From NCBI GenBank assembly GCA_008632985.1, contig QPGO01000097.1, forward strand, positions 248,001 to 312,000: a stretch of DNA of 64,000 bases. The letters run 5' to 3'. Shown here in pieces: positions 4,086-40,757 of the stretch (position 1 is the stretch's first letter; every line of letters begins with the position of its first letter). The position numbers and the translations under genes were made by a program. Under the pieces are notes generated by a model that saw only the letters and a list, made by a program, of their open reading frames with translations, made no database searches and was not told the DNA's origin. This DNA is from Psammoneis japonica. Taxonomy: Eukaryota.

Positions 4086-5216
4086 CTAACACAAGCAGCT
4101 GCTCTGGCAGCCGCAGAAGATCATGCTCTTGAGCATGAGATCTGTTGTCATTTCATTCAGGATCTGTTGCACACAAAAGATCACCGCGTCCATGTGGGGG
4201 CGTGGTTCGAATGAGCTGACAGTTTTTGGGTGCTGCGTCAGAGTCTGAAAGATGAGCTCTGTTGGATTCAACTCGGGTGAACAAGTGGGAAGGTGCCAAA
4301 CGAGCACATTCACAGGCAAGCCGTCTGGCCCGGGAGTCGTCCACATTGGATCTTGAAGCATGTCGGATTCCGCACCTTTGTGGATGACAGCATTGTCCAA
4401 TGTCAAAACATCTCCACGATTGAACCACCCTTGAACAAGAAACATTTCCACAAATGCCATGAAAGCCGCGCTCGTGCCATTCTCCACTCCAACACTGCAC
4501 TTGATGGGCGCTTTTGTCTCACCCACTCCCGTGCATGCTGTGAGATTGCACCGCTGCCGACAGTCACCATCAACAGCCACATTGTCAGCTGTTCCTGTCA
4601 AAGGATTGACTCTCCCTTTTCTGGAAAAAATGTCAGTTCCTTCCACATGCTTTTCATCTGCAAATTTGAGTCGACGAGGGTCAAACTGTGAGATGAAACG
4701 CACGAACTCAAAGCAATGCACGATGTTCTCGGGTTTGAACTTGTCAAGTGGCACAAGATTGCTCTTTTTGAATGACACCTTGAAATCAAACCGAGAAGCA
4801 AACCATTCTGAAATGAAAGATGGGGAAACCAATTTACCATGTGTCACGAGCAGCTCTTCCACATGGCTCTCATTCGACCTTGAGGGTTGTTGGAAACGAA
4901 GCCACAAAAGGTGGCATTCCTCCTCTGGAGTCAAAGCAATGGAACCAACACCTCTTGCTCACTCTTGACTGCGAGCAATTGTGTCAGGATCAACCACACA
5001 GCCATCCAAATCAACTTCATCCATCACTTTCTTCGCAAAGTTCCGAGAAACACGGCCCAGTCTTGCGACCTCAGCAACCTTTGGCTCCTCGCCTGTGACT
5101 GACGTCAACTTCAGTTCTTCACACACCCTTGCAATCTCAAGCTTCTTCAACACGTCATGTGACTTGCCACGCCAGTAAAATCCACCATTGGCATTCACGT
5201 CAAGCCCCGACGCCAT
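4086..5216 (-). pseudogene. IS630/Tc1-family DDE transposase with one in-frame stop
   Basis: ORFs 4959-5303 and 4086-4934 are in the same frame, separated by a TGA at 4959-4961. N-terminal HTH-like segment (EVARLGRVSRNFAKKV); catalytic motifs FADEKH, LTLDNAVIH and LPTCSPELNPTE. Confidence 0.88.
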
Positions 5217-16175: not shown

Positions 16176-16525
16176 TTTCGCTTGTTTTGACGCTCAAAGA
16201 GAATGAACGGTTCGTCTCGAGATTTTTTACCGCGTACTTCTTACTAAAAAATCGAAAATTATCTAGTATTCAGATCCGCAAATTATATGAAAATAGATTA
16301 ACGCCAAATCGTGGCATCAGACGCAACGGAGCTTATCTCGTTGTTATTTTTGCGCGGGAAAAATCAATGTTGGAAGAGTGATGTGAACCAGGTGTTCCAT
16401 TCCGCATGGTCGCAAAACTGCAACGAGCTCGTGAGCACTCATAGACACTCATTGAATTAAATGCAATCTGGCGACCTGAGACAAGTGATTCAGTGTCCAG
16501 CCTCAACCTTGTCTCCCGAGATCCT

Positions 16526-16801
16526 TGACAGGATTTGAACAGGATTTGGGTGCGCGCGAAGTATCGCGCGCTGTTTAGTTTACCGCGCACAGTTTTGTGT
16601 GCTTTAGTTCCGCGCGTTCACGCGCGATGTAGTTTGCTTTCGAGCCACAAGGCTCACAAGAATAACAACAGTAGCCCGATTGTGCCGACTTGCACGTCTT
16701 TCGGCTCCTGCAACGGTCTCTGAGCAGAGACTCATCTGCTGTTTAGACAGCAGCAAGGAGTCATTGTTTGAATTCTTGCCATTTGCCTTCAATTTCTGTC
16801 A
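16526..16801 (+). repeat. 5' LTR
   Basis: Ungapped match to 23356-23631 with 14 mismatches; TG...CA termini. Confidence 0.95.
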
Positions 16802-17740
16802 GATTGACAGTCTTGCTCATTGTCAACCCATTGAGCAACCGCCATCGTCATCGTTGATTTGCCAACGATGCTGTTTCAATCCTGCATGGACCTCCGTGTG
16901 TGTTCTACATACATCGGCAAGTCTGCGCGCATTCAATGCCAGGGCATCGGCAGGAAGTTAACGTCACCGTCAAGTCTCCTTGCCGCTGGACATCTGGGTT
17001 GATTGCACTGCCTTTGATCGCTGAAGACACACATTCAACGGTCACATCCAAGTCTGTCCTTGATCAACATCCCTTGACACACCCATTCCTCGGTCAACGG
17101 TCAAGAACCCCACACATTCAAGGATCTCAGTTGCTGAAGACATGTGCACATGTGCACATCTTCACGGCCAAGAACCTTTGCCCACCCTTCGGACTGCGGT
17201 TTTGCCACCACTCTACAAGCACACTGAGTCCATTGTGCCTGATCTACCCCGGACTGCTGGTGCTCCACAGTTCCACCAGGTCCACGAGGACGACTGTGAG
17301 AGCAAGCAGCCGTGATTGCAGCCTGCATTGGGGCGAGGGTGCTTTCCCGCGTTTGTTCGTTCGTCCACAGCGCCTGACGCCTGCGTCAACTGGCCAGCCT
17401 GATCGGGAAATCCAACCGACGTGAAATGAGAATGGTTCGGGGGTCTTGTCCACCTCTGGTCAGCTCACCTGCAGGGGTTTGCAACCCGCTGCTCCGCTCG
17501 CAAGCAACCCAAAGCGCCGCCAGCTGCGGGTTCGGACGTGCCGGCACAACTCTGCGGACCGGACAGGAAGTTTAGCACTCGACAACGAACGGGATGGCAA
17601 AGCCCGGCGACTTCTGATTTTAAGACAGTTCAAGATTTCAAGTCAAGTCTGTTTCAAGTCAAGTCCATTCCCACCCAAGTTTCGAGTCTGCCTTCGCTTC
17701 CCAACCAGAATTGATTGTCCTGACACCACTTTTGTCTACC

Positions 17741-20700
17741 ATGGTTCTCACTCGTCAGCAACAAACCGATGGTTTCGAGCACGTTGTTGGAACCGTGCTT
17801 GCCCAAGGTGCTGGGAGTCCTCTTTGTTTGGCTTTGGCCCAAGATGGCACGGACTCGCATCAGGAACTGTTCACATTCATGCCGTCCCAAATCGACTCTC
17901 TTGAGTGCGACAACGGCACTGATGTGATCCCTTTGCCCCGTGGTTACAAGAACATGTCAGCAGCACTGGTTGGTCTGTACATTGTCAAAGCACACAAAGG
18001 TCTTGACGTTGCCAACGACTCCTCTTTGTTCACGCATGACGAGTTCCTTGCCTGCCGCCTCAGCCCCGACTGCATGTCTTCTGTGTCCATCGGCAGCTCA
18101 CCCCTTGCACCTCCGCATGTCACCAACCCGACCAAGGCACGCGACCCGGTGCGGGACTTCAAGCGAGGCATCAAGCGTGATCCCACCGCTTTCACGGCTC
18201 TCAAATCCGACAAGCAGTGGCACACTTGGCACACCTCACTTGTGGCACAAGCCCGTGCCCAAGACGTCGAGTGCATTCTAGACTCGTCGTACAAACCGAC
18301 CAGCCCCGAAGACAAACTGCTCTTTGCTGAACAGCAAAAGCACATGTTCGCCGTCTTCGAACGCATCCTTCTCACCGACAAGGGCAAGGCTCTCATTCGC
18401 GAAAATGTGGGGTCTTCTGACGCACAGACCGTCTGCCGCGCCTTGTCTGAGTGCGCGCTTGCCTCCACCCGCGCATCTGTCGAGTCCTCCACCCTGCTCA
18501 CGCACCTCACCACCGCACGTCTTGGTGATGGCACTTGGAAAGGTCCGACCCACGGGTTCATCCTTCATTGGCAAGATCAGTTGCGCAAGTACGAGGCACT
18601 CATCCCGGCCAGTGACCACTTCTCTGAAGGACAGAAGCGCGTCATGCTCGAGAATGCCGTGCACCCTGTCGAGGAACTCCATGCTGTCAAGAACCAAGCT
18701 GATCAGCATCGTACGCAGAGTGGCAAGAGCCTCACATGCGATCAACACTGTGGCTTGCTCCTCTCCGCGGCAGCTCAGTGCGACAGTGCGTTTCAACCCA
18801 AGACGACACCTCGAGCTCCCCGACGCGCCACATGCGCACACGACGTCTGCTCCGAGGAACCGTCCGACGACATGTTCTACGACATTGACAGCGACATTGA
18901 CGTCCTTCAGGCCAATGCCGCCTGCACCCGCGGTCCCAGCCTCACCGGTGACCAATGGAGACGTCTCCCTCCCGACCACCAACGGATCTGGGATTCGTTG
19001 CCCGATTCCTCCAAGGCGATCATCCTTGAGCATTCTCGTCTGCCTCCCCGCAACCCGCGAGCCAGTCACTGCCATGAGTCTGTTACGCCCAACCTTCACG
19101 ACCAACGCCTTGGGAGTGACGGTGATGTCAACTTGTCCAACACGACTCCTGCTGACTCTGGTGACTTCGCTCCAAATGTGGATGCCAATTCGGACAATCC
19201 CATCATGGCGCACCTCACCAAGCGCAAGTCACTGCCACCCGGTGATCTGCAACGTCTGTTGTCTCCTAACCAAACCCCCAATGCCAGTCGACCGGGGCCA
19301 TCCGCCGCTTCCTCTACCCCGCCAGCTTCTGCAGATGACATGGAACTCAACGGCCGCACTCACCGCCGCATTGACAACCACAATGTCATTTGCTCTGCCT
19401 CTGCTCATTGCTCCACACGCACTGGCGCTCTAGTCGATCGTGGGGCCAACGGCGGCATTGCTGGCGACGACGTTCGCGTCATTGCATGCACCTCTCGCCA
19501 AGTCGACGTTCAGGGCATTGATGATCATCAATTGGTGGACATCCCTGTTGTCACCGCTGGTGCCGTCATTGAGACCCAGCGTGGTCCCGTCATCGCCATC
19601 CTCCATCAGTGCGCATGCACGGGCAAGGGCAAGACCATCCATTCCTGCGGCCAGCTCGAATGGCACAAACAGGATGTCAACGATCGCTCTGTCAAGGTGC
19701 CCAACGGCTTGCAACGTGTTGCCACTCCTGATGGCCATGTCATCCCCATTGACATCAAGGCCGGCCTGCCTTGTGTTGCCATGCGACCTTACACTGACGC
19801 CGAATGGGACACCCTGCCCCATGTCATCCTCACCGGTGATGACACATGGGACCCTTCCGTCCTCGATCACTCTGTCACTGACGACGACCAGCGGCACGAC
19901 GCGATCTCTGACCCACAGGACGATCCCACTGCCAACCTGTTTGACGAGTGCGGCAACTGCCGTCATCGTGTCGTTGTCAACGAGACCATCATGTCCGCTT
20001 CCTTTTCTGCCGATCACGCGTCCGCCCTCGATGATCACCTCATTCCGAACAACGACGTGTTCTGCGAGTGTCATCTACATGCGATTGACCCCAAGGGCGA
20101 TGACGTTCCGCCTCCGGAGTGCACTGCACAGCCCAAGGACCCCCCCTTCGAGTCTCTTCAGCCTTGCTTTGGCTTCCCACCTGCCGATGCGGTCCGTCGT
20201 ACTTTTGACTGCACCACGCAGTGCGCCCGCATGCCCGCCGGCACACACCTTAGGAAGGCCTGCAAATCACCCAACCCCGCCCTTAATGTGCACCGCCGCA
20301 ACGAGCCTGTCGCCACTGACACCGTTTGTGCCGACACCCTGGCCGTCGACTCTGGTTGCACCAGCGCCCAACTGTTTGTTGGCACCGAGTCTGCCGTCAC
20401 TGACGTCTGCGGCACTGAGACGGACAAAGAGTTTGTCAACACACTCGAGGATCAGATCCGTGAACGTGGTGCCCCATCCAAACTCATTAGCAGCCGTGCT
20501 CAAGTTGAGATCAGCAACAAAGTGCTCGGGATCCTACGCGCCCTCTTCATCTCCAGCTGGCAAAGTGAGCCTCACCAGCAACACCAAAACTTTGCCGAGC
20601 GTCGACACCAGACCGTGAAGCGCATGGCGAACACTGTCATGGATCGTTTTGGTTCGCCCGCCCACACATGGCTGCTGGCGCTCATGTGCGTGTGCTTCAC

Positions 20701-23408
20701 ACTCAACCACACAGCGTCCCCACGTCTCCACTGGCGCACGCCCCTCGAGACTCTCACTGGCTCCACCCCGGACATCAGCCCATTGCTTCGCTTTCACTGG
20801 TGGGAACCCATGTGCTTCCACCTCGATGATCCGATTGGCCGTCCGAATCCCGTGAGTTGCGTGGACGCTTCGTTGGCATTGCTGAGCACGTCGGCCACCA
20901 GATGACCTTCAAGATTCTATCTGACGAGACTCAGAAGATCCTCTGCCGGTCCAACGTCCGCTCCGCTGCCACCGATCCTGCCGTTCGAAACCTGCGTCTT
21001 GATCCTCCTGATGGGGAGCCACCTGAACCCATCATCAAATCTCGCCATGACGACAACCCGTCGATTCTCCTGATGGGGAGATCAGGACACCCAAGATGCC
21101 AGTTTTTGATCCGCAAGACATCATTGGACGTACCTTCCTCATGCAGCCACAAGAGGACGGACAACGCCACAGAGCTCGCACCGTCAAGGCCGTCGAAGAC
21201 CACGAATGGAAAGTGAACGGCAATCCCGAGCTCACTAAGTTCGTCTGCTCTGTCAACAATGACGAATGCGAGGAAGTCCTTGCCTGCAATGACATCATGA
21301 ATCACATTGAGCAAGAAGACGAAGACACTGCCATTTGGAAATTTCGACGCATCGTGTCACACGAAGGACCTCTGAAGCCTCACGACCCAACCTGGAAAGG
21401 CTCAAGCTACAACATCATGCTTGAATGGGAAAGTGGGGAGATCACGTCCAAGCCTCTTGCCATCATCGCCAAGGACGACCCCGTCACCTGTGCCATCTAC
21501 GCACGAGAGAACGGACTCCTCGACACGGATGGCTGGAAACGGTTCCGCACCATCGCGAGGCGCCAAAAGAAGCTATTTCGCATGGCCAACCAAGCCAAGC
21601 TTCGCTCCTTCCGCACTGCACCTCGCCACAAGTACGGATGCGAAGTTCCCCGGAACTGCAAACACGCCATGTCACTAGACGAACGCAACGGCAACCGCAA
21701 GTGGGGAGACGCAACTAATCTTGAGATGGACCAACTCGACGAACAGGAAGTCTTCCATGACTGCGGGCCCTTCAAGTCTTCCACTCCTCCTGCGGGACAC
21801 AAGAAGATCCGAGTGCACCCAGTGTGCGACGTGAAACACGACGGTCGCCACAAGGCACGACTCGTAGCCGACGGGCACCTCACGGACGTACCTGTCGACA
21901 GTGTCTGCTCCGGAGCAGTCTCCCTCCGTGGCCTTCGGCTGATGATTTTCCTGGCCGAACTCAACGAGTTGGAGACATGGGCCACCGACATTGGCAATGC
22001 CTGCCTTGAAGCCACCACCAAGGAGAAGCTTTACATTGTAGCCGGACCCGAATTTGGCAAACTCGAAGGACACATCCTTGTCATCCACAAGGCACTGCAT
22101 GGACTGCGCAGCTCCGGTCTCCGCTGGCACGAGCGCTTCGCCGACTGCCTGCGAGCTGAAGGCTTCTTCCCCTGCCGCGCCGAACCCGACATTTGGATGC
22201 GCAGGAACGGCGACCACTGTGAACACATTGCCGTTTATGTGGATGACCTCGCCATTGCCATGAAGGACCCTCAATCTTTCGTCGACACTCTCACGGAAAA
22301 GCACAAGTTCAAGCTCAAGGGCACGGGACCCATTGAGTTCCATCTGGGTTGCGACTTTTCCCGGGATCCCGACGGAACCTTGTGCCTGTCTCCGCGCAAG
22401 TACATCGAGCGCATGGTCGACAGCTGCGCCCGACTGTTTGGGGAGAAACCTGCCACCAACGCCCTGTCACCTCTGGAGAAGGGTGACCACCCCGAACTGG
22501 ACACTTCCGAACTGCTGGGACCCGATGGCATTCACAAGTTCCAGTCTCTTGTTGGTTCACTCCAATGGGCAGTGTCCCTTGGTCGAATTGACATTGCCAC
22601 GGCCATCATGTCACTCTCTAGCTTCCGAGCTGCGCCCCGTCAAGGCCACTTGGATCGTGCCAAATGCGTCTGTGGGCACCTCTCCAAGATGCGACACGGT
22701 GCTCTCCGCGTTCGCACGGAAGAGCCCGACCATTCGGATCTCCCTGCTCCGGCCTGTGAATGGATGCATTCCGTGCATGGCGAAGCAGAAGAGATGATCC
22801 CGAAGGACGCTCCACCGCCCCTTGGCAAGTTCGTCACTGCCACCCACTACGTCGATGCAAACTTGTGCCATTGCATGCTCACCGGACGCTCTGTCATGGG
22901 AATGCTCCACTTCCTCAACAAATTCCCGGCTGATTGGTTCTCTAAGAAGCAAGCCACCGTGGAGACTGCGACCTGCAGGTCTGAATTTGTTGCCGCAAGG
23001 ACTTGTGTTGAGCAGATTGTCGACCTGCGCATCACCCTGCGCTGCCTTGGCGTCCCGGTCCGCAATGTCAGTTACATGTTCGGTGACAACAAGTCGGTTG
23101 TAGACAGTGCCACCATCCCGCACTCCAAGTTACACAAGCGACACACCGCACTGTCGTTCCACAGTGTGCGTGAGGCAATTGCCTCTGGTTGCCTTGAGTT
23201 CCACTTCATCGAAGGCTCCCGCAACCCTGCTGACATTCTCAGCAAGCATTGGGGTCACTCCCAAATCTGGGACCTTCTCCGCCCCCTCATGTTCTGGAAC
23301 TTCATTCCATCCGAAGTCGAATCTGTTTCTGTGACTCCTCAAGCAAACTGGGGAGTGACAGGATTTGAACAGGATTTGGGTGCGCGCGAAGCATCGCGCG
23401 CTGTTTAG
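17741..23408 (+). pseudogene. Copia gag-pol polyprotein with two frameshifts (~20830 and ~21070)
   Basis: Protease ALVDRGANGG; integrase VATDT...SEPHQQHQNFAERR; RT KHDGRHKARLVA, DIGNACL, AVYVDDL; RNase H YVDAN, SEFVAAR, FGDNKSV, NPADILSK. Confidence 0.93.
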
Positions 23409-23631
23409 TTTACCGCGCACAGTTTTGTGTGCTTTAGTTCTGCGCGTTCGCGCGCGATGTAGTTTGCTTTCGAGCCACAAGGCTCACAAGAATAACAACA
23501 GCAGCCCGATTGTACCGACTTGCACGTCTTTCGGCTCCTGTGACGGTCTCTGAGCGGAGACTCATCTGCTGTTTAGACAGCAGTGAGGAGTTGTTGTTTG
23601 AATTCTTGCCACCTGCCTTCAATTTCTGTCA
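23356..23631 (+). repeat. 3' LTR
   Basis: Ungapped match to 16526-16801; preceded by the polypurine tract. Confidence 0.95.
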
Positions 23632-23636
23632 ATCCT

Positions 23637-26270
23637 TGAGCAAGTCAGTCACAGTGATTGAGGCGGACCCAAACAAAGACACTCAAAAGCAAGTTCTTGC
23701 TGTGCTCTAACTGTTTCTCTTTCAATCATTGTCCCTGTTCTAAAAACATGTTTTGCATTGTGCTCCATCATCAGATGGATGACGAGAAACAAGAGGTTGT
23801 TGATGTGCCCGCTCGGATGTCATCAGATCAAAAATTAGATTGGGTGCAAACGTGCTCTGCCATTGTGGATGGTGATAGATGGTCCATGTCTCTCTTCACA
23901 CTTTGCATGGATGGAGTCATTCAAAAGCATTTGTGGCAACATTGAACGTGAGCAGAACATGCTGCGTGATGATGCATGCAAACATCCTTTTGTGACCACC
24001 AACTCTTGTTGTGCCATTGTCTCTTTTGTGGCTGTGCTCATTTGTCACTTGTTTTGTCTCATTCTGATTTCTGCAGCTGCCGTCATGGCATCATTCTCTG
24101 GGTGGCCAAACAAGTTGATTGCTCTTGCTGTTTGTGATTGCCAGCAGACAGTCAGAGAGTGGAAAGGCCAGGAGCTCAAAATGAAGACATGGCGATTCAA
24201 TGCAATGAAGAACGTTTCTTTTCTCAAGATTTCTAGATGCGGCGTCTCTGCTGCAGAACAGCTCTCACTTTTTGGTGAAAGAAAGAGCACCTTCGTGAAA
24301 CAATGACAGTTGCAAATTCAAATGGCAGCCTGCCAGCATCATTTCTTCCCTTGCCGCTGTTTCTGGAACATGCAGCAATGAGCAGCAGTTGAGTCGCTCT
24401 GTCCCACTCTTCTTCCACAGCTGGTGGCATTCTAGCCCAAAATCATCTGCAAGAGTGGCTGGTGGCATTTGACCCATGATGAAAATGTGCAGCACAACTC
24501 ATGACTCTCACAAATGCATCATTGCCACCAGCACTCTTGGATGTTGCGGGGGCTCCATTTGCATGAGTGCATGTGACATTCAACCTTCAAAAACAAATGG
24601 ATCACACAAGATTCATTGAAAATGCAAAAAACAGGTCTCACAATTCACACGGCTGCTGTGGCATCACAAGGCAGCTTTGCAAGCATCGGAGCTTGTGGCA
24701 GGCATTTCAGAGCTCATGAGCACTTGGTGCTGAGCAAACTGAAAACAGCTGGAACAAGCAACACAAGTGGCAAACCACAACAACTGACAAACACCAAACA
24801 TGCCCCCTTTCTTGCGACCAACAAGCATGAGAGCAAAAGAAGATGGGAGAGAAATTTTCCAACAGAGGCTCTATTGCAATCCAAGAAAGAAGGCTTGCCA
24901 TGTGGAAAGACATTTCCCTGAAGCTGTCAATCTTGTTCAATTTGTGTCAAATGATTTTCTGCTCCAAGTGAACATCCTTGTTGTTGGGAATGCAACTTGC
25001 TGCTGCTGGCCATCACACATTGCCTTGCAGTCAACAACACATTGCTGCAGCTGCGGCGCAGAGCTCTCAACACAGAGAGCTGCAGCACTTTCTGGGTTTG
25101 GCCCTTGCATTCGTTGGTGCACTGGGGTTCTGCAATTTGCCAGGCATGGCTGACAAGGAAGCCAGCGGTTCAAGAGTGGTGAACCCAATGTGTTGTGTGA
25201 CTGTGGCAATGCTGCTCTCACAAGAACTGTTGGCCCAGCAGGAGAGAAACTGGCCCAATGGACAAGTTGACAAACTTGAGGAGAGCATTTTCAGTGTTTT
25301 TCATCTGTTTGTGGGTTTTGGAATGTGCTGCAGATGAGCGATGAATGTCAGCATCAAAGTGGAAAACCAGAGCACCTGGTGGTCTTGTTGCCCTTGCAAG
25401 TCTCACAACAGCACTGCTTGGAGTTGTAAGATGCTCAATCAAGTGGAAGAGGAAACATGAATGAAGTTGAGGAGGCTGTCTGCGCAAGCTTCATCAAACC
25501 ATTGGCTGTGGGGCAGCAGAGTGGCTGCTGCAATTCATTCTGTTCTTGCCATCAATGTTGTTGCACATCCATTCTGGAGCTGGCAAAGGTTCTTCACTTC
25601 TTGCAGAGTTCATGCAAGAAGACGCCAGAGAAAACAGCTCTGCAGAGTGAAAGGAAGCATGGCTGTGACATCTGTCAGTGAAGGGGTCACAAGTCACAAG
25701 TGGTCGAGTGTGTTGTCCCTTTTGGACCAAAGTGATTTCAGCTTTGTAGATGGATTCAAAAGCTGTCCAAAAAGATGAAATTGACTGTGTTGGAGTTGCG
25801 CCCTCAGATTGCAAAAAACAAAAGCATGAAAAAGAGGAGAGGAGCACCCCAATGCAGCAGCAAAATGAGGAGCCAGGTTCTTGTGACACCATGTCGACAA
25901 TGACAACTCACACATGCGTTTGCTTTGTGAACATTCCAGACAGCAGAGTTTGCATCCAAAAATTTCCCACTCCTTGCAGCCACTGCTTGTGCACAACCCC
26001 ACTCTCTGTCTGCAGACAGTGTTGGCACAATGTGAGCAGACGATGGAGAGAAAGACTCTGCAGCTGAAAGGAGCCTCTGTCCCTCTCCCTCTCTCAGAAG
26101 AGAGGCCTCATCTAGAGAGTCTCCAGCTGTTGGCAGTGGCTCGATTAGAGAGAGAGGGTAGGAGAGAGCAGCTCTCTTATTTACTTGGTGCCACCGCAGC
26201 CACTGCCAGCTGCTCTCCAGCAGCTGTAGCAAGGTGGCAGAGCTGCAAACAATAGTTGTTGTTAGTTTGG
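23637..26270. repeat. Decayed repeat/TE relic, depleted of TpA and CpG; continues the 16380-16525 segment split by the Copia insertion
   Basis: Near absence of TA and CG, excess of TG/CA, and only spurious C/H/Q-rich ORFs. Boundaries are approximate. Confidence 0.7.
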
Positions 26271-26440
26271 CAAGCCATTGGGTGTGTGGTGAGAGATACG
26301 ATCTCGAAAGAAGCATGCCGAACCCGCAGACGAGAAGTGCCTGCCAAGGGTAAGCACAATGATCTCACTGCTGTTCGACCATCGATCAACGTTGACACAA
26401 CTAACGCCGACTCCTACTCATACCAACACATTTAAGCATC

Positions 26441-27959
26441 ATGTCTGCTGGTCCCTCTGGTGCAGCTTCTGGTGGTCAACTGGAAGAGAGAGTGGATCTG
26501 AGCTCCGAATGCGACGCAAAGATTGAGCAAGCGCGGGCCTTACTCGGATCGAATCAACTTCGCGAGGCATTGGCGTTGCTAGCCGCGCTGGAGAAGCGAT
26601 GTCGAGTCGGAAATGACAATCCTTCTCTTGTAAAAACGTGCGAGGAATCCTTGCAGCTCTGTAAGGACGCGGGCGACGATGAGGCGATAATTGCAACGCT
26701 GCAGACTTTGTCGACTCGCCGGTCGCAGAAAACTACGGCTGTTCGAGCTCTTGTGAACAAAGCTCTTCCCTGGTGCGTTGATGGGATCAAACCCATTGCT
26801 GCTACCGGACAGCAGCAAGAAGCAAGAGACAAGCTTGTAGTAACGCTCCGCGATATTACGGATGGAAAGATTTTCCTAGAAGCGGAGCGAGCTAGATTGA
26901 CGCGGGCTTTGGCGACGATCAAGGTGCGTACTGCGCACTGCTGCATGAGGAATTCAGCTAACTATTGACTGGATGCTTATTTTTTGCTTTTTCCCCTTAA
27001 TGTAGGAGGAGGAAGGTGATGTGGCAGGTGCTGCTGACGTTTTGCAGGAAGTGCATGTGGAAACTTACGGCTCGTTGTCGAAGAGAGAAAAGATCGAGTT
27101 CATCCTCGAGCAGATGCGCCTTACTCTCGCAAAGAAGGATTACGTTCGGGCTGCAATTGTTGCTGGAAAAGTTTCTCGAAAGAATCTAGCAGAAGAAAGT
27201 ATGGAAGAGTACAAGGTTACTTTTTTTACACTAATGGCGCAGTACCATCGACACGATATGGACGCCTTGGAACTCGCCAAGGATTACCATGCGATTTACT
27301 CCACTCCTTACGTTCTCAAGGACGAAGACAAGTGGAAGCCCGCGTTACAAAGCACCGTCATGTTTTTGGCTCTCAGTCCTTATGGTATGGAACAGCAGGA
27401 TATGCTCAATCGGATCAATGTGGATGCTAACCTGGAGAAGCTTCCGTCTTGCCAGTAAGTTGGACTGTTACCATTCGTTTTCGTCTCTGGCTTTCGATTC
27501 ACACGTTGCACCATTCTTTACCTTCCCAGAGCCACAATCAAATTGCTCCTAACCAAAGAGATTGTTCACTACCCTCTTCCGCATCAAAATGAAATTGAAT
27601 CGTGGGATGCCTTCCTCGAGGGCGGGGAAGAACTGACCAAGCACTGGCACGACACGTTTCACCGACGCATTGTTCAACACAATATTCGTGTAGCATCCCT
27701 CTATTACAAACGTATTCATGGTGCTCGATTGGCTCAACTTTTGGGACTGGACTCTACGAGATTGGAACAGGAGATATCTGGCATGGTGAGCGACGGGAGT
27801 GTCTACGCCAAAATCGATCGCCCAAAGGACATTGTGCGATTTGCTTCAACCAAATCACCCGAGGCCGTTTTGACTGACTGGGCCGCCGACATTGATAAGC
27901 TTTTGGATTTGGTAGAATCTACGGTTCATGTTATTCACAAGGAAAACATGACTCAATAA
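26441..27959 (+). CDS. RPN5: 26S proteasome regulatory subunit Rpn5/PSMD12; exons 26441-26923, 27006-27454, 27530-27959
   Basis: LEKRCRVGND, ITDGKIFLEAERARLTR, VHVETYGS, RIVQHNIRV, VYAKIDRP (PCI domain). Confidence 0.95.
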
Positions 27960-28498: not shown

Positions 28499-28522
28499 AC
28501 ACACACACACACACACACACAC
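28499..28522. repeat. (AC)12 microsatellite
   Basis: Read directly from the sequence. Confidence 0.9.
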
Positions 28523-29407
28523 GTCGCGAAGTCGAACGCCATCGAGCATCGAGGACCCGGACGTCGTACCGGTACGGTATGTTCTGGAGATGCGCGTTCC
28601 GCTAAAAAGAAATTTTCAACGTGGTCGAACTTTGTCCGTCATTTGAGAGACATGCTGCATTGGAGTGCATGGATCACTGTCATGACCATGCATGCGCGAC
28701 GATGTTTGGCTCAGTGACTGCAGATGGGGTCACAGCTGGTCAAACGCCAGTTTGTGAGAATCTGTGGGGCTCTGGAAGTTGGCAGCTGTAGAGAGTTTGT
28801 CGCTGGCGCAAGAAGATGAGCCCTCCAAAACCCTCTGTGGGGGTCGCCAGCAATGCCCCAAGGAGCCTGCCCATCTTTGCCAAACACCCCATTGACAACC
28901 CTCCAACAGGATGAGTGCTTTGGCTGTCCATCTGAAGCAAGTGGGGTCAATGCATTGGGCCCTGCATGGCTCCGTTGCGTTTTCCTGCAAATGCAAGGAG
29001 TGCCAACCCAGGCACAATTTGACCAACCTCCATTGTTTCAATGGAACACTGTGTGATTCCCGCAGCACCTGCAACAACCCTGTGCAAGCTGAAGCACCAG
29101 TGCAAAGTTCCTGAATTCACCTTTGTTTGTCCTCCACAAAAAATGCAGATTGCTTCCCCAGCTCTCCAACTTCTGCCTCCACCTGCCGGTCTTGCATGTG
29201 CACCCTCTTTTCAGTGAAACTGAATTCTGTGGAATTTTCATCTGCTCTTTTTCTCCCACATTGCTCCAGCTCAACTTGGTGGCAACTGAGATTTCAACTT
29301 GTGTCTCTCAAGATGTGCGTGCTTCTTTCTTCCTGCAGTGCAATTTTTGTTGTTGAAACAGCTTCTGTTGCCTCTTCAACATCCACCACAACAAACAAAT
29401 TTGGGGT

Positions 29408-29595
29408 GCAGCCAGTGGTTGTTCTGAGTTGGTGAAGCCTGCTGATGACTCTGCTGCCAGGGCTCATCTCGTGGCTCTCACACATTGGTCAGTTGGTCGG
29501 GCAGCCCAGTGGTTGTTCTGAGTTGGTGGAGTTTGCTGATGACGACTCTGCTGCCAGGGCTCATCCATGGCCCTCACATTGGTCAGTTGGTCGGG
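29408..29595. repeat. ~94-bp tandem duplication; a shorter motif GCTGCCAGGGTTCATCCCATGG recurs to ~29955
   Basis: The unit CCAGTGGTTGTTCTGAGTTGGTG...CACATTGGTCAGTTGGTCGGG occurs twice. Confidence 0.8.
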
Positions 29596-32500
29596 GGTGC
29601 AGGTCTCTTGGTGTGGACAACAGTCACATGGCTGCCAGGGTTCATCCCATCACCTCCATTTTTGTCAGGGGTGCAGCGAGCAGTTGTTTGGAGTGCAAGA
29701 GCACACTGATGATGCCGCCAGGATTCATCCCATGGCCCCTGGGTCAGGGGTGCAGCTGACTTGTCACAGCTTCCCTTGACTTGTGTTGTCATTGATCATT
29801 CCCACTGCCCCAATTGTTGCGTGGGTGCAATGGTCAGATCCTCTGACATTGTTGGATTTGAAGCTCCCAGAGATTGTGCTGCCAGGTTTCATCCCATGGC
29901 CCTCACCTTTGGCAAGGGTGTGCACAGCTGATGCCACTGCCAGGGTTCATCCAGTGCCCCCACGCAGTTGAACATGGATTTTGTTGGAGAAGGTGCACTG
30001 AGTGGAACCTTGTGTTTGGCAAGCTGCCCCACTGTTGCTTCCCAGTGTTCCAACTTGGTCCCTTGCACCTTGGGGGATGCATTCTGTGCTGCCTTTCTAG
30101 CTTGACTGTCCAACATTCCAACCACAGTTTTCAGTGCATCTGGTCTGACAATGTCTTTGCCACTCCCTTCCACTGTTTTTTGTCAGCTCTGAGTCAAGCT
30201 CCACTTCCTGGGCATCATCTGATTTTTGTCTGTGTCAGACCATTCTTCTGCTTCTTCTGCTTCCAAATCTCTCCCTGATGGCAGCACAAGTCAACAAGTG
30301 GTTGCTGGTCCCAGTCTGCCTCTGTCTTCCACACCAGCTCCTTTTGTCATTTTTCCATGACTCATGCCTCCATTTTGATTCAGTGCCCAGCAAATGGGGA
30401 GGACTTGAGAATGTTGAATGTTGGCATGGTGTGCAAAGAAGATTCCTGCTGGAAGATGAGTGCATCAAAATCATGCAATGTTGGGAAAGCCAGCCAGGAG
30501 TGATGGCCACACATCAGCTGTGCTCACTTTGCATTGCCTGGTCTTGATTCCATCCTTGATCATTTGATTTCAAGGCTCTTTCCAAGAAAAATGGAGAGCT
30601 GCTTGCCAAAGATCTGGTTCAGCCAGACAGCTCTTCACATGACTTGTCATTGTCCAAGTTTGCTTCTTCCTCATCTGTTGCCAAGCATCAATTGCTGGGC
30701 ATGCACAAGGACTGTGGCAGCACTTTGAGTCCATGTGCCAGACGGAAACATTCTTGCAATGGCACCAGCAGTCATGCATGCAAAGCGAAAGATCCCATTG
30801 ATCTGCCAGCCTTTGTTGGTTGCTCAAACCACATCAAACAAGATCAAAATCTTTGTTGGTTGTCGGACAAAGAATTTCTGTTCAATCACAATGACCCCAA
30901 CGACATTGACACCAACAAAGCAATGAGATGCACCCTGGATGCTGCATGCTGTCTGTTCATCTTGCCAACACAAGCATTGCTCATCCATTGGGAAGCCATT
31001 TTGACAAGCAAAGCAGCTCAAAGAAAACCAAAAAGCAGTTGTGTCACCATCTCGGGCTGCCTTTGGCGGTGCTTGCAATCCACAATGCACTGCAGCCATG
31101 GGTTCCATGCATCAAGAGCATGATGAACAGATTGTGGAGGAGAACATTCATTCACCACAAGTCAACATGGTCTGGGAGGTTTGCACTCTTTGCCCAAGTC
31201 TTGTTAAACCGCCGGCACATGGGTCACTTCAGAAGTGGTGGTGCTTTGGCAGACAAGTGCATCCCCAATTTTTAAGTCATCAAGATGAAGTGCAATCTTG
31301 ATCCTCATGGTCATTTGCCATCCTCTGTCAATGTCATTGATGAGTTGACAAAATTTGCCAGTGCTCCCTTTTGTCCCTTGGTGCTGTGTCTTTGTTGCAT
31401 CCTTGGGCACTCGTGTCTCCCCAGCCTTGTTGTTTGTTTCCTCATGCACAGTGGTTGTGGAGCAACAGAAATTGAAACCCACTCACCTCGTGGAGTTCCA
31501 TGTTGGCTGCTTGGTTGCACGCACCGTCAGGGAGATCAACCACAAGCTTCAACAAAAGAGAAGAGGAATTTTCCTCCACCACAATGATGCTCACATCATC
31601 ATCCACTGTTCCTTGCAACCAGCAAAGTGTGGCACAAAGAGCACTCCTCAATTTCTGATGTGATTCTGTCAGCACAAGATGCAAAGGAAGTGGGACATTC
31701 CCACCACTTGCAAGTTGCAAATGGGACAGTGCCATGCCGTGTGTTTCACCGTTGCCCCTTTCATTCTGAGCTTCAAAGATCTTGGCATCAACGATCTAAT
31801 GGGATTGATGGTGACCATTGGATTTGCACTTTTCCATTTCATCAACCTCGCCCATGCCAACAAAAACAGCAAGGCAATGAAACAGTGGACACTTGACCGA
31901 CAAAAGTGTTCTGGATGAAATGGTGGAGACCATCACAAAGAACCTTTGTGCTGCCTTTGCAAATCTCTATGGAGAAGTCATTGCTTGCCATGGAGGGGGA
32001 AACTGAATTTGTGAAGCCTTTTGCAGTGCAAAATCCAGTGCTTCCAATGGCAACAAATTCTTTGAGTTGCATCAGCCAGAATCTTTTTGTTGCCAAAGAA
32101 TTGTTTGTTCATGTCATTGTGACCTGTGCAAGTCACAAAGGAAAGCATCATGCTGCTGAGGTGAAAGGCAGCCCACATCAGAAACTTCCTTGCAGGGGAG
32201 ATTGTGCACCCATGGCAGACTTGAAAAAAATTGTGCACCTGAAGAACATCATGGTGCTGGTCATGTTGGCAACTTCAGTGATCAGCTCCTCAACAAGCTT
32301 CTGAGTTCCTGCAGAGGAACAACGTTCCAGTTTATCCCCACCCCAGATTTTGAGGGATGTGCTTATAGAGGGGCACACCATTGGGTCCAAACCCCATCAA
32401 CTTCAAAAGGAAAGGAACCACATCAGGTGGACAGAGATGCAGAGGGGTGACTTGTTGTGAAGGAAGGCAAAGGCTCCTGACAAGGATGACTTGCACAAGT

Positions 32501-34559
32501 TTGGAAGGTGCCTCTCCAACACACAGCTGACAATGTGGAAGGAAACATTGTGACAAACCACAGAAGGCAGAGGTGTGCTGTCTGAAGTGGAATGAATTGG
32601 GGGCAGCTTTGCCACCTTGAGTCAGATGAACCACAGCCCCATGCATTGAAAAAGTGTGTGGTGTTGTGATGTGTGGCAGGAAGGCAGAATCATGAGCAAA
32701 TGAGTGACAGACCATCATGTTTGAATTGACAAGTCTGCATCAGTGGTGATGAATTAGACCAGCAGTCACAGTGCACACCAGGAACAAGGGTGCACAAGAT
32801 GGCAGGATCCATCACAAGGCTGCCAGGCACATGTCTGCACACAAATGCAGCAGCACATGGCACTGTGATTGCAGTGCATCCCATGGACAAAAATCTTGCT
32901 TCTCTGGAAACCAGCAAAACACACAACTGCACCATGCTGTGGTCAGAAATGATCAGACAAGTGAGTGGACTGCACCAAAGCCTGACAAGACAAAAGAAGC
33001 CCAAGCAACACAGTGCAAACTGCTCAGACAACTTACATTGAACTCATCAGATGATGAAATGAGCAGGTGCAACAGGGAGCAGTGCAAACAGACATGCTGG
33101 TGTTGAGACAGTGGTGCAGAAATCAAATGAGGGGTTGTTTGTGACCAGTGGGGCTCTCACCACCTCCACTTCAGATGAAGGGGAAGATGCAACAAGGGAC
33201 AAATGAAAAAAGACAACACAACAACAAAAGAGCAACAGGGACAGAATTGGTTTGGAGAGCTGCTGCAACAAGAACACACTTCTCTGTGAGCACAAGTTTC
33301 TGCTGAATGAAAAGGCCATGAGACACCATGATGGCAGGGCAGCAATGATTTTTCATCTGAACTCAACATGCCACAAGTCAACAGGGTGCAGATGTGGGAC
33401 ATGTCAAAGAAGGACAAGGTGCAAAGACATGCAACAAGAAAAAGGAACAATGCCTGTGGTGGAGAACTCAAAAAGGAGCTTTTCCACAATTGTCATTGTG
33501 AGGGCAATGGCAGAGCATTGACAACAAACATGTGTTGTGGCTCACAAACAACAAGATCAGCTGGATCATGCAAGGAACAGATGTTGTTCTTCTTGGGAGG
33601 ACATGCTGGAGGGTGGGAATGACACAAAGGCACACAACCACTGCACGTGACACTTCCCACCCATTGTTGTTGGGAAGACCATGTGGAAGCATTGGCTTCA
33701 ATCAAGATGTTGCTTGAACAAGCTGGCATCATCAAGCAATGAGGCACTTGGTCTGTTGGTGTTAGAAAACAATTGGAGTGAGTGGGTGTGCGTGCATGGA
33801 AAATCTGGGGAAGAGCTCAAGGACAAGAGACTTGTTCCTGCCATGAAGCACAGCACTGGGAAAGGAAAACAAGCAAGAAGAAACCAAGGTTGAAACAAAC
33901 AAGGACTTGACAGGCCAAGAATTTTGGGGAAGGAGATGTGCAAGAAGAGATTGAGCAAGGATGCAGAGCAATGTGATGAAATGAGATCCCAGGAATTCTG
34001 GAAATGCATCAATGGCACAGAAGCCATGACGGAGAAGATGGGCAATGAGATTGCAACAAAGGACAATGACGACATCAATGAAGAGGAGTTGTGTTTGTGG
34101 AAGGCTTGCAAATGGCAGTGCAGTTGTCATTTGGTGACAATCTACAATGAAAGGCAAATGAAAGGTGAGACAAGAAACAGCCGGTTGATGATGCCGAAGG
34201 AAATCAAGCAGCAAAAGCATGCACCAAAAAGATGAAACAAGAGCAAACACTGTAAAATGGGGTTTTACATCAAAATTGTTTGTGTGGTGTGACAACCAGA
34301 AATGACAAGCACAGCTGTGCTGTGAACAATGACATGGCCATGTGAACAATTTGGCGTGCTGATGTGGCAAGCCCAAACTGAAATGAGCCAGGATCCACAT
34401 TGCAATGCAGGTCAAACTCATGTGGAAAATTGTGAAAAATTCAGGTTTGACATGCATGATTTGATTGAGCCCAAGCCGAATTGTTCTTCCCTCTGATGCC
34501 CCCCCCCCCCCAGCATCATTTGTGAGTGTGCCCATTCTTGTGCCCATCTGTTGCTTTCC

Positions 34560-35720
34560 ACAAGAACATTCTTGGCTGGTCAAGAGCACTCCTGGCCAGT
34601 CAAAAATCAAGAGCCAGCTGGTCATTTCTTGAACATCAAGTGATTTTGGGAGATTCTGGAAGTTGGTGATTGTCACAGGAAAGTTTGTCACTGGCGCAAG
34701 CCACTCAAAAAGAAATGCCTCCCAAAGCCATTTGTGAGGGTTGCCAGGCATGTCCCAAAAAGCTTGAGAATCTTTGCCAAACACCCTCTGCTGACATCAA
34801 TTGCATCAAAGTGTGTGCTTTGACTGAACCTCATGTTTCAAGCAGTTTGGCAACTTTGTGTGCACTGCATTTTGTTGTCAACTGCTGCTCTGAAGAGGGC
34901 ACAGGGAAGTGCTGGCCACAGCTCTGTGCACACTCTCTGTGGGGGACATCATGGCCCACTGCAGTGCAGCTGCACCATGTGGCACAGCAGCTCTGGCAAA
35001 GTTGTTGTTGTTGTTGTTGTTGTTGCCCATCTGTTGCTTCTCACAAGAACATTCCTGAAAGGCTCTTGTGACCAGTCAAAAATGAAGGGTGGTCAAGAAC
35101 ATTCTTAGCCAGTCCAGTGCTCTTGACTGGCTGGCCAAGAATGTTCTTGACTGCTCAAAGAGAATTCAGATTTTTGGAAGTTGGTGATTGTGCAGAGTTT
35201 GTTGCCAATGCAAGGCACTCAACAAGTCTCTCAAATTCCTTTGTGGGGATCACCGGCAATGCCCCAAGAAGCATTGGCGCATCTTTGCCAAACACGACCC
35301 TGCTGCTGACAACCCCCCAACAAGATGTGTGCTTTGACTGAGCCTCATTCCAGCCAGTCTTGCAGGCTTGCACATGCTGCACTTCAGTGTCAACTGCTCC
35401 AAAGGCAATGCTGACTGCAGCTCCATGCCTGTTCTCCAAAGGAGACATGACCCACCACACATTGTGCGCAACTTCACCTTGTGGCACAGCAGCTCTTGCA
35501 ATGTTGTTGTCACTGTAAAGCTGGGCAGGAGTTTGTAAAGCTGGACAGGAGTTGTGTCTTTTTGGCTTGTTGCTTCTGTGCTGCCTTTGAGGCATCCAAG
35601 AATGCACTGTGTGTCAGCATGCATGCATCTTTTTTTGGGCCTGTCTGTTGTTTCACACAAGAACATTCTTGGCCATTCTTGACTTTTGACTGGTTGGTTA
35701 AGAACATTTTTGACCATCAA
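34560..35720. repeat. Diverged ~500-600-bp tandem units with palindromic subrepeats; a related copy lies at ~28770-28930
   Basis: CACAAGAACATTC at ~34560, ~35042 and ~35657. TGGAAGTTGG...ATCTTTGCCAAACAC...GTGCTTTG at ~28773, ~34657 and ~35175. Confidence 0.75.
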
Positions 35721-36949
35721 GAGAGTCAATTGCTCCACAACTGTCAAACTTTGATGCTGCCATTTCAATGCCAGTGCACAATTTGTGCAAAAACATGGTT
35801 GAAAAGGTTGACAATCAACCAGTCTTTGAAGCACAGCTGAGCATGCAAGTGATGTCCATGCAAGGGCAGTTTTCCCAGTTTTTCTTGTCAAAGAATGAAG
35901 ACAGAACACCACTCCTTTTGTGGGAGCTTTTCACACAATTGAGAGCACAGACACACTTTCAAAATGCCTCCCAAGTGCATTTGAAAACAACAGTGTGAAA
36001 AAAAGCCTCCTGCTGAAGATTTCTCTTTTGTTGTCCACATTCTCCAAGCATCAAGGATGATGGTCATTGTCACTTCAAAACAAACAGATCTGAGGAGAGA
36101 AGCAACAAAAAATTGTGGGGAAAATCCACTCAGATTTGCTGGCACAAAATGCACAGTGACAGAAAAAGAGCAAACATGTGGCACACCTGACCTCAGACCT
36201 CAGCACATGTGTTTCTCACCCAGGTCAATCTGCATGTCCAAGGAAAGCAACAAGAGAAAAAACAGAGCAGTCAGGTGGACAAAGAACAAGAGGACCATTT
36301 ACAAACACATTGTTGCCCCTTGCTTCACCATGCTTTGCTTTGGCAACAGCTTGCACTTTTTCTTCTTCATCTGCAGTCCCAGCCATCCTTGACATGTCAA
36401 TGTTCTCATCTCAGTGGCCTCTTTGGATGATGATGCTGAACCCCCCAGCATGAGGAAAACTTGGCATGTGCTTGCCATCGAGTTCAGGAACTTTTTCTTG
36501 CTGCCTTGCTTGAGTCAATGGAGGTCACTGAAACCCATGCAGAGCATCTGTGTTGGGATTTCATCGCTTGCTGACTCCTGGCACATGCTCAGTCTTGCCA
36601 ATGTCCCTTGAACTCACTGCACAGATTTTGCAAACACATTTCCACTGCTGTTGTTGTCATGTTGAACAGGTGCAGAAGCTAAAAAGTGAGCACAAGACTT
36701 TCAATTCAACAGGATTTGCAAACACAAATTCACCACATCATCAACAACCATCAGCGCATCATTTGCTGCAATGTTGTCTGTGTCTGTCCTGCACAAACCA
36801 CCTCATTGCACCCCAATGTTCCAACACACTCCTTTGCATGAGCTGTCAATTGATTGGGCCTTGTGCACAATGGCCACAGGAGGAGGATGCTTGGAAACCA
36901 TGCCATCCAATGCCACTTTGACCACTCTGCAATTCCCATGGCTTGTGTC

Positions 36950-40600: not shown

Positions 40601-40697
40601 GAGTGCTGCCTTTGCAGTTGCAGTTTTGCTCAACCACTCAAGTGTTTTGTGACAACAAACCAGATGCACTGCTTGGCGCAGGTCAACAAATGCACAT

Positions 40698-40757
40698 CAG
40701 CACATGGCAATCTTCTGAGAGTGCAAGCAGCACATGGCAATCTTCTGTGAGTGCAAG
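40698..40757. repeat. 30-bp tandem duplication
   Basis: CAGCACATGGCAATCTTCTG(A/T)GAGTGCAAG occurs twice. Confidence 0.85.

Follow-up and report, generated by a model that had tools for sequence, protein, structure and literature searches.

Evidence for DNA-level loss of TpA, with slower loss of CpG, in a recently inserted copia element and other mobile DNA of the diatom Psammoneis japonica

The window analysed here, a 64-kb stretch of the genome of the diatom Psammoneis japonica, contains a dead Ty1/copia copy between two copies of the target-site duplication ATCCT, at 16521..16525 on the left and 23632..23636 on the right. Its two 276-bp LTRs (5′ LTR 16526..16801, with 8 TA and 20 CG steps; 3′ LTR 23356..23631, with 7 TA and 21 CG steps; both on the plus strand) have TG...CA ends, starting with TGACAGG and ending with TGTCA, and the purine-rich tract AACTGGGGAG stands directly before the 3′ LTR. 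The interior (16802..23355, plus strand) has an observed/expected ratio (o/e) of 0.16 for TpA and 0.90 for CpG, and a GC content of 57% compared with ~48% in the flanks. Three open frames, all on the plus strand, cover most of the coding part: frame A (17624..20905, 1093 aa) probably runs from gag to the integrase part of gag-pol, a middle frame of 128 aa (20830..21216) lies between two 1-base gaps, and frame B (21051..23408, 785 aa), which extends into the 3′ LTR, encodes reverse transcriptase (RT) and RNase H. The RT is of the RVT_2 type (PF07727, E = 9e-25), which together with the LTR ends and the 5-bp target duplication identifies the element as Ty1/copia, presumably resembling the CoDi (diatom copia) lineages. 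A Pfam search with the 1093 aa of frame A gave 0 matches; its last ~500 aa (residues 569-1069) align to the parts that precede the RT in long homologues of frame B. Contigs of other family copies have one more C behind 20829 (six in run X1, also in X2-X4) and behind 21056 (five in run X1, also in X2). With both, gag-pol would be one continuous frame, in which the present copy appears to be frameshifted twice.

Within the window a repeat search found no second LTR pair, and blastn and tblastn found no further copy or fragment of the family. The top-scoring pol match, P0001, was rejected as a copy of the same family, being only 54% identical and carrying an internal duplication. A degenerate pattern of the LTR start hit 3 viral and at least 120 metagenome loci, all of them chance matches; when these 123 loci were compared by blastn with the LTR and the whole element, only the 20-21-nt seed matched. 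The family is very abundant in the sequencing data, where 14765 contig pieces were placed on the element, 3624 of them at least 99% alike. Summed word depth in the interior is 53,000-130,000, against 74.9 for a single-copy contig, a depth that does not translate into copy number.

That single-copy contig, from a public sequencing run, joins the two flanks without the element. The joint runs from 16520 to 23632 and skips 7111 bp, that is 7106 + 5, keeping one copy of ATCCT. Letters differ from the window at 0 of 189 positions in one flank and 1 of 219 in the other. The matching target-site duplications and the exact joint show a single real insertion. Since filled and empty alleles coexist, the locus is a natural calibration point.

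The LTR pair, which a repeat search also placed at 95% identity, differs at 14 nt in 10 sites, all transitions and exactly at the positions of the original prediction; the LTRs are compared as rendered in the assembly of this very abundant family. Three sites oppose TA to CA or TG (5′/3′: 16562 TA/CA, 16672 TA/CA, 16684 TG/TA) and three oppose CG to TG or CA (16611 CG/TG, 16620 CA/CG, 16726 CA/CG; direction unpolarised). At three doublets (16711-12, 16754-55 and 16762-63) CA is always in the 5′ LTR and TG always in the 3′ LTR. A single site, TT vs CC at 16782-83, falls outside this pattern, again as predicted. Ten transitions in ten events would have p = 0.018 even with a transition share of 0.67, and 9 of the 10 sites lie at CA, TG, TA or CG steps, where pyrimidine-purine steps cover 144 of the 276 LTR positions (binomial p = 0.015). 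The pair mixes two processes, with three unambiguous TA losses and three unambiguous CpG losses. TA sites number only 3 to 6 of the 10, depending on the doublets, and TpA o/e in the LTRs (0.45-0.47) is close to the host level of ~0.55. Because the LTR pair has no outgroup, it gives no direction of change by itself. At 16672, the sole LTR position among the 40 listed of the 479 variant rows, the depth of other family copies divides into 67% T and 33% C.

The direction of change can be read in the interior, where distant homologues serve as the outgroup. TpA occurs 47 times against 302 expected from base composition, while the other AT steps are at expectation (AA 1.06, TT 1.08, AT 0.95). TAA and TAG together fall to 7.8 per kb compared with 34.6 in host DNA, and TGA is unchanged. 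A cut-off of 80% or more of 120 homologues defines 376 conserved columns in the RT and RNase H. At the 21 conserved tyrosine columns (TAY) 4 residues are kept and 17 changed, to Cys (TGY, 8), His (CAY, 6), Trp, Gln and Phe (1 each), whereas only 21 of the 355 other conserved columns have changed. Conserved arginine is kept at 28 columns and changed at 2. Lysine (18/18) and asparagine (9/9) are all kept, so A outside TpA is untouched. Among 98 conserved columns of frame A no Tyr is kept and 3 are changed, two of them to TGY or CAY, and 1 of 9 Arg columns is changed. The Tyr content of the two frames, 0.55% and 1.02%, lies below that of any of the 120 homologues (median 4.26%, minimum 2.31%). 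Read against these homologues, the changes in the interior run A>G and T>C, from AT to GC, and are restricted to TpA. Neither GC-biased gene conversion nor selection on codon or UA content is retained as an explanation, as AA, AT and TT are undepleted and conserved tyrosines are destroyed.

The same depletion is found in other mobile or repeated DNA of the window. On the minus strand at 4086..4958, in a TpA-poor stretch (o/e 0.15-0.24), lies the DDE_3 transposase remnant of a DNA transposon, which has zero Tyr remaining; its conserved Tyr columns have changed at 1 of 1 with an 80% cut-off and 3 of 3 with a 60% cut-off. The copia element itself was inserted at the edge of older repeat DNA (23637..26000, unstranded; TpA o/e 0.03-0.17, CpG o/e 0.16-0.49), in which a Pfam search found no domain. 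An old repeat block at 28500..42000, likewise unstranded, has TpA at ~0.03, CpG at ~0.1 and CA/TG at 1.8-2.0 of expectation, with Pfam matches in 0 of 36 frames. Between these erased repeats, at 26405..27956 on the plus strand, three exon-like frames belong to a host gene for the proteasome subunit RPN5/PSMD12, with normal TpA (0.5-0.6) and CpG. In 500-bp bins TpA o/e is ~0.5-0.9 in the left flank, across the RPN5 gene (26.4-28.0 kb) and in the genes from 42 kb on. TpA depletion is thus confined to the copia element, the DDE_3 remnant and the old repeats, and host genes are spared; the borders at 16.5, 26.0, 28.5 and 42.0 kb are sharp. As the mark is present in a DNA transposon and in old repeats and absent from the host genes between them, the process is linked neither to RNA nor to reverse transcription.

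The original prediction held that the mutation is post-integration, DNA-level and two-stranded, and that dating by LTR divergence would overestimate the age of the element. All four claims stand, mostly on evidence outside the LTR pair. That the changes followed integration is borne out by the differing LTRs, by the 14 of 21 conserved pol tyrosines turned into Cys or His and by the empty-site allele surviving in the sequencing run. By the established model of LTR synthesis an edit in the RNA would be passed to both LTRs, and TpA erasure extends to the DNA transposon and the old non-coding repeats, which places the mutation at the DNA level. Both strands are involved, as seen from TA>CA and TA>TG at 16562, 16672 and 16684 and from the pol tyrosines, 8 of which became Cys and 6 His. 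As for dating, what is new here is the empty-site contig: 1 of 408 positions differs between filled and empty flanks compared with 14 of 276 between the LTRs (odds ratio 21.7, Fisher p = 2.4e-5), so that the LTRs overstate the age at this locus by a factor of about 20 or more. Per base, TA loss at conserved Tyr would proceed at no less than 448 times the rate of the flanks (80 times with the upper 95% bound for the flanks), estimates that rest on one flank difference in one contig and presuppose that the interior losses post-date insertion. This order of events would hold if the parent copy was functional.

It would seem likely, at a probability of roughly 0.7, that a recent Ty1/copia insertion was followed by two context-specific transition processes, a dominant loss of TpA and a slower loss of CpG. 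The retrotransposon would have entered the diatom chromosome with a 5-bp duplication of ATCCT. The dominant process would then convert TpA to CpA or TpG, an A:T to G:C change at a palindromic step that can be hit on either strand, and may have removed ~70% of interior TA steps, while each LTR would have lost 1 to 5 out of 9 to 12. It would be confined to mobile and repeat DNA, ending at most a few hundred bases from host genes, and would act about two orders of magnitude above ordinary mutation. The slower process, CpG to TpG or CpA, would be behind 3 or more of the 10 LTR sites; such changes are expected from deamination of 5-methylcytosine in methylated transposons. The putative enzyme of the TA process is most likely an adenine deaminase that works on DNA and belongs with TadA/ADAT, enzymes that naturally act on an A following a U, and the process presumably includes some recognition of mobile DNA. 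Among the LTR sites, unambiguous TA losses make up only 3 of 10, equal to the CpG losses, a count that speaks against this reading, as does the near-host TpA of the LTRs.

How much of the LTR divergence each process explains depends on the three doublets, originally proposed to be one ancestral TA or CG mutated on opposite strands in each LTR. The ancestor may be either step. Independent hits do not account for them, since 0.25 doublets hit in both LTRs would be expected at the single-site rates and 3 are observed (P = 0.002); a hot patch or another origin is needed. If the doublets were CG, with the 5′ LTR changed by G>A and the 3′ LTR by C>T, decay of methylated CpG would explain 9 of 13 events and most of the LTR pair, leaving TA loss a minor part. 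We regard this as rather doubtful, although it is the strongest of the alternatives. It yields a tidy strand pattern, with all CpG events G>A in the 5′ LTR (5/5) and C>T in the 3′ LTR (4/4); strand coherence was rejected as an arbiter of ancestry, as TA and CG ancestry both give coherent patterns. Further CpG losses private to the present copy lie just downstream of the 5′ LTR at 16850, 16869, 16886 and 17327; there CG, taken as the ancestral state, makes up 77-98% of family depth. LTR retrotransposons of the diatom P. tricornutum are reported to be methylated, and preliminary bisulfite data mentioned, though not displayed, in that report point to CpG (PMC2806351). The likeness to 5-methylcytosine deamination extends from these four leader sites and the three LTR sites, with CG>TG/CA on both strands, to the near-complete CpG loss in the old repeats. 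A CG origin of the doublets has against it that ~70% of the CpG steps in the final 100 bp of the two LTRs would have been lost (7 of 10 site-copies hit), compared with 2 of 40 elsewhere in the LTR; CpG loss in the coding interior is only ~5% (CpG o/e 0.90; conserved Arg changed at 2/30 and 1/9 columns). Overlapping hits are also less probable under CG than under TA (hypergeometric 0.016 vs 0.15), and with TA ancestry a loss of ~75% in the last LTR stretch would match the 70% of the interior. Deamination of 5-methylcytosine covers a minority component only and cannot yield Tyr>Cys/His or TpA loss.

The excess of doublets (P = 0.002), together with the TT/CC pair outside pyrimidine-purine steps, would also fit a foreign tract, brought in by ectopic gene conversion or recombination with a family member and responsible for some LTR differences, especially the cluster at 16711-16783. 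The family is very abundant (14765 contig pieces), 9 of the 14 differing bases fall within these 73 bp, in the last 91 bp of the LTR, and a CA/TG doublet polymorphism at 17521-22 (TG in 42% of depth, apparently no TA) suggests that subfamily variants are inherited. Counted by sites, however, the clustering is non-significant (p = 0.21; 5/10 in the last 91 bp), a donor copy did not come to light, and in a donor, too, the differences would have had to come from these two processes acting on DNA. We consider conversion unlikely. It is quite improbable that the assembled LTRs are mosaics of reads from other members of the family, produced in assembly or polishing: the many near-identical contigs (3624 pieces at least 99% alike) would favour such mosaics, and no record bridges flank into LTR among the contigs and reads shown, but the matching target-site duplication and exact empty-site joint mark one real insertion, the differences lie away from homopolymers, and the same spectrum is read independently from protein conservation. 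Editing before integration is scarcely credible, whether by ADAR-like RNA editing, which would end up in both LTRs, or by deamination of single-stranded cDNA, which could make the LTRs differ and, under the standard reverse-transcription scheme, fits the three single TA sites (TA>TG in the 5′ LTR, TA>CA in the 3′ LTR), as the doublets are oriented the opposite way, the strands are hit about equally in pol and the same erasure is present in old repeats and in the DNA transposon, which already contradicts such editing.

A literature search for TpA hypermutation in diatoms returned no report, and it gave a single relevant paper, a 2026 preprint about the chlorarachniophyte Bigelowiella natans. 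There, 230 A>G/T>C changes arose in the integrated viral DNA of mutation-accumulation lines, every one of them at a TpA step and at a rate orders of magnitude above background, with TpA depletion and CpA+TpG enrichment as the long-term mark; reverse-transcriptase and DDE domains were over-represented among TpA-poor coding sequences (Mettrop et al., bioRxiv 10.64898/2026.01.13.699255). The giant-virus and virophage DNA of B. natans and the mobile DNA of the diatom, a stramenopile, share A>G/T>C change only at TpA, to TpG or CpA, and only in foreign DNA. The targets described there are integrated viral DNA and those here an LTR retrotransposon, a DNA transposon and old repeats. Erasure is also deeper here (TpA o/e 0.03-0.16 vs 0.45 in the B. 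natans viral region), and it is accompanied by CpG erasure; the words "CpG", "LTR" and "diatom" do not occur in the main text of the preprint. The B. natans mutations were, by that account, episodic and caught in cultured lines, whereas the diatom process is read from the genome alone.

In outline, the pattern also resembles repeat-induced point mutation (RIP) of Neurospora and other ascomycetes, which is likewise transition-only, dinucleotide-specific and DNA-level, and disables repeated or mobile DNA while sparing single-copy genes. RIP consists of C>T changes, mainly CpA>TpA, creating TA and stop codons and lowering GC. Fungal RIP was rejected for the diatom on this direction, which is reversed: TA is destroyed, TAA and TAG fall (7.8 vs 34.6 per kb) and GC rises (57% vs 48%). 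An A:T-to-G:C mutator acting at one dinucleotide of mobile DNA would be the mirror image of RIP. APOBEC3 and ADAR act before integration on one strand, of cDNA or RNA. They share with the diatom process clusters of deaminase-type transitions that inactivate retroelements, and a 5′ U is favoured by ADAR, according to work that Mettrop et al. cite (10.64898/2026.01.13.699255); the diatom case departs from these enzymes in its unequal LTRs, its changes on both strands and the inclusion of a DNA transposon.

Going further, these data could reflect a genome-defence system in diatoms that recognises mobile DNA and rewrites chromosomal TpA to TpG or CpA through a DNA-acting adenine deaminase, in short, locally strand-coherent patches and at hundreds of times background. 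If of the same kind as in the rhizarian Bigelowiella, it would be ancient in SAR or have evolved repeatedly; it would silently remove TAA/TAG stops and tyrosines from transposons and make LTR-based ages of diatom elements meaningless. We offer this as a tentative proposal that may well not hold in full. Its occurrence on retrotransposons and DNA transposons of a diatom would extend the phenomenon, reported in the literature searched for one unrelated alga, to a major group of marine primary producers. With TAA and TAG gone, long but spurious open frames appear in all six frames of hypermutated elements, and homology searches fail on such elements, as with the 1093 aa of frame A. Regarding strand coherence, a runs test on 20 TA-derived leader sites gave 7 runs against 10.6 expected (permutation p = 0.067), which is suggestive only, the rows being pre-selected. 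Among the 40 listed of the 479 variant rows, 35 are transitions, 30 of these at pyrimidine-purine steps; in 20 of the listed rows the present copy has CA or TG where other copies have TA, and in 4 it has CA or TG where CG prevails in the family.

The element at 16526–23631 is an LTR retrotransposon of 7106 bp with two 276-bp LTRs, TG...CA ends and, as the original prediction had it, a matching ATCCT target duplication on each side. It can be assigned to Ty1/copia because an RVT_2 reverse transcriptase is matched (E = 9e-25) in the frame at 21051–23408. Gag-pol is broken into three frames, and since many other copies of the family have an additional C after each of 20829 and 21056, which would join the frames, the element has been frameshifted twice. 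The surrounding DNA is eukaryotic and rich in genes, with a GC content of about 48%. The named best matches of a host protease (Seminavis, Cyclotella, Nitzschia, Thalassiosira, Fragilaria, Odontella and Epithemia) are all diatoms, which identifies the host as one, though at 56–62% identity none of the database matches of this protein comes from a close named relative. The LTRs differ at 14 positions in 10 sites, exactly those originally listed, and all of the differences are transitions (p = 0.018 or less). Three sites are TA versus CA/TG, three are CG versus TG/CA and three are doublets with CA in the 5′ LTR and TG in the 3′ LTR. The remaining site is a TT versus CC pair, which would match the classic form of the UV-type CC>TT tandem change known from mutational signatures. 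Pyrimidine–purine steps make up 144 of the 276 positions yet hold nine of the 10 differing sites (p = 0.015).

The age of the insertion is constrained by a contig of 928 bp (depth 74.9) from X1, one of four public sequencing runs (X1–X4) of one sample. It covers 16332–16520 and resumes at 23632–23850, omitting 7111 bases, which correspond to the element and a single ATCCT copy; eight letters at the joint match either side, as ATCCT and a shared TGA predict. There is no mismatch in the 189 bases of the left flank and one in the 219 of the right. The contig is the empty site of the insertion, which is therefore polymorphic or heterozygous in that sample and is no older than the split of the filled and empty alleles. 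The 14 differences in 276 bases between the LTRs compare with one in 408 between the flanks of the alleles (odds ratio 21.7, p = 2.4e-5; 10 versus 1 when counted as sites, p = 7e-4), so that dating by LTR divergence would give an age that is far too old, as had been predicted. At the 132 LTR positions that lie outside pyrimidine–purine steps there is a single event, which does not differ from the flanks (p = 0.43). If the tyrosine losses in the interior post-date insertion, TA sites have changed at at least 448 times the flank rate per base, or 80 times when the upper 95% bound of the flank is used.

As an LTR pair has no outgroup, the direction of change was taken from protein conservation. 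When the RT/RNase H frame is compared with 120 homologues, 376 columns reach a conservation of at least 80%. The homologues are 58–69% identical to the query except for one relative at 54%. Only four conserved tyrosines are kept while 17 are changed: eight to Cys (TGY), six to His (CAY) and one each to Trp, Gln and Phe. Among the other conserved columns 21 of 355 are changed; arginine is kept in 28 and changed in two, and all 18 lysines and nine asparagines are retained. In the 1093-residue frame at 17624–20905 all three conserved tyrosines are changed. The tyrosine content of the two frames is 0.55% and 1.02% (homologue median 4.26%, lowest 2.31%). Because tyrosine is lost to Cys and His while Lys and Asn are kept, the change is from TA to TG or CA, sparing A outside TpA. 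It is near equal on both strands, the eight Cys against six His bearing out the two-stranded action proposed from the LTRs.

The same mark is seen in the composition of the interior (16802–23355; GC 57%), where TpA is at 0.16 of expectation (47 TA versus 302), CpG at 0.90, CA at 1.34 and TG at 1.50, with AA, TT and AT normal. It is stronger in about 16 kb at 23637–26000 and 28500–42000, where TpA is about 0.03, CpG about 0.1 (range 0.03–0.5) and CA/TG near 1.9. No Pfam match was obtained for any of their 44 frames of at least 110 residues, and these stretches are presumably ancient transposons past recognition. In host genes TpA is about 0.5–0.8 and CpG about 1. The proteasome lid subunit gene RPN5/PSMD12 (26405–27956, three exon-like frames) has normal TpA and CpG with fully erased repeat DNA within a few hundred bases on either side, and the boundary of the process is sharp here. 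In the otherwise normal left flank of the element, the 500-bp bin at 15501–16000 has a TpA ratio of 0.23 (8 TA, CA up to 47), which may reflect chance or hypermutation of a short patch.

DNA transposons are struck too. A DDE_3 transposase remnant on the reverse strand (4086–4958), within a stretch at 2–6 kb with TpA of 0.15–0.24, has no tyrosine (homologue median 3.76%) and 4.1% cysteine; conserved tyrosine columns are changed in 1/1 at an 80% cut-off and 3/3 at 60%. A link of the TA loss to reverse transcription is thereby ruled out, which upholds the proposed DNA-level origin and the exclusion of reverse transcriptase error.

The family is very abundant, with 14765 contig pieces from X1–X4 aligned at 80% likeness and a summed word depth over the interior of 53,000–130,000, a depth that does not equal copy number. 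Of 474 variable places in X1, 424 are transitions. Among 40 variants listed of 479, the element has CA/TG in 20 where other copies have TA (13–96% of depth) and in four (16850, 16869, 16886 and 17327) where 77–98% of depth is CG. It has TA where others have CA/TG in three, and CG where others have TG in one; a CA/TG doublet accounts for two, transitions at other steps for five and transversions for five. Two processes, a dominant TA loss and a slower CG loss, are therefore visible in these classes. The slower fits deamination of 5-methylcytosine; LTR elements of P. tricornutum are reported to be methylated, and preliminary bisulfite data, unpublished within that paper, point to a CpG context (PMC2806351). 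The doublet, at 17521–17522, is CA in the element (58% of depth) and TG in 32 contigs (42%), with apparently no TA class, which hints that some hypermutated variants are inherited by subfamilies and that mutated copies kept transposing. At 16873–17128 the TA-derived states fall in runs, five TG and then CA in 11 of 12, suggestive of loss in short strand-coherent patches (runs test p = 0.067, on pre-selected variants).

The LTR doublets had been explained as one TA (or CG) hit on opposite strands. Their reciprocal CA/TG form is confirmed, but the three seen exceed the 0.25 predicted for independent hits from single-hit sites (P = 0.002), and a uniform process fails to account for them under either ancestry. 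Each LTR retains six shared TA and 19 shared CG. TA ancestry is favoured, by about 3 to 1: the final 100 bp of the two LTRs would then have about 75% TA loss (six hits in eight site-copies), like the interior, with unremarkable overlap of hits (P = 0.15) and a coherent pattern within that stretch, three CA and three TG. Descent from CG, which is less favoured, would be perfectly strand-consistent (five G>A in the 5′ LTR, four C>T in the 3′ LTR). It needs, however, about 70% CpG loss in that 100 bp (seven hits in 10 site-copies), compared with 2/40 elsewhere in the LTR and about 5% for the coding interior, and an unlikely overlap of hits (P = 0.016). A conversion tract donated by another family copy is a third option.

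The TA loss thus occurs on DNA after integration, is TpA-specific, apparently fast and on both strands, and is limited to mobile DNA, at the edges of which it stops in under 500 bp. Since TpA is palindromic, A>G on one strand is indistinguishable from T>C on the other. Judged from the inferred chemistry, an adenine deaminase acting on DNA would be the most economical enzyme; the TadA/ADAT family edits the A that follows U in tRNA. A modified thymine mispairing with G would be an alternative. Mobile DNA might be recognised through repeats, chromatin, small RNA or methylation. The only published description of such hypermutation that we found is that of Mettrop et al (bioRxiv 10.64898/2026.01.13.699255), who report real-time TpA>TpG/CpA change in integrated viral DNA of the chlorarachniophyte B. 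natans and propose an ADAT2-like candidate. The TA loss of the diatom element probably belongs with this type. The text of that preprint makes no mention of diatoms, LTRs or CpG, and our literature search found no report of TpA hypermutation in a diatom; relative to the preprint, the empty-site calibration, the separate CpG component and the doublet excess are additions.

With both strands summed, host DNA has TAA at 16.4 and TAG at 18.2 per kb, and the element only 3.1 and 4.7; TGA is unchanged. Because these two stops are almost gone, long open frames, of 200–390 residues at 16802–23355, are found in all six frames. The 1093-residue frame has no Pfam match, and gene finders and domain searches would go astray on such DNA.
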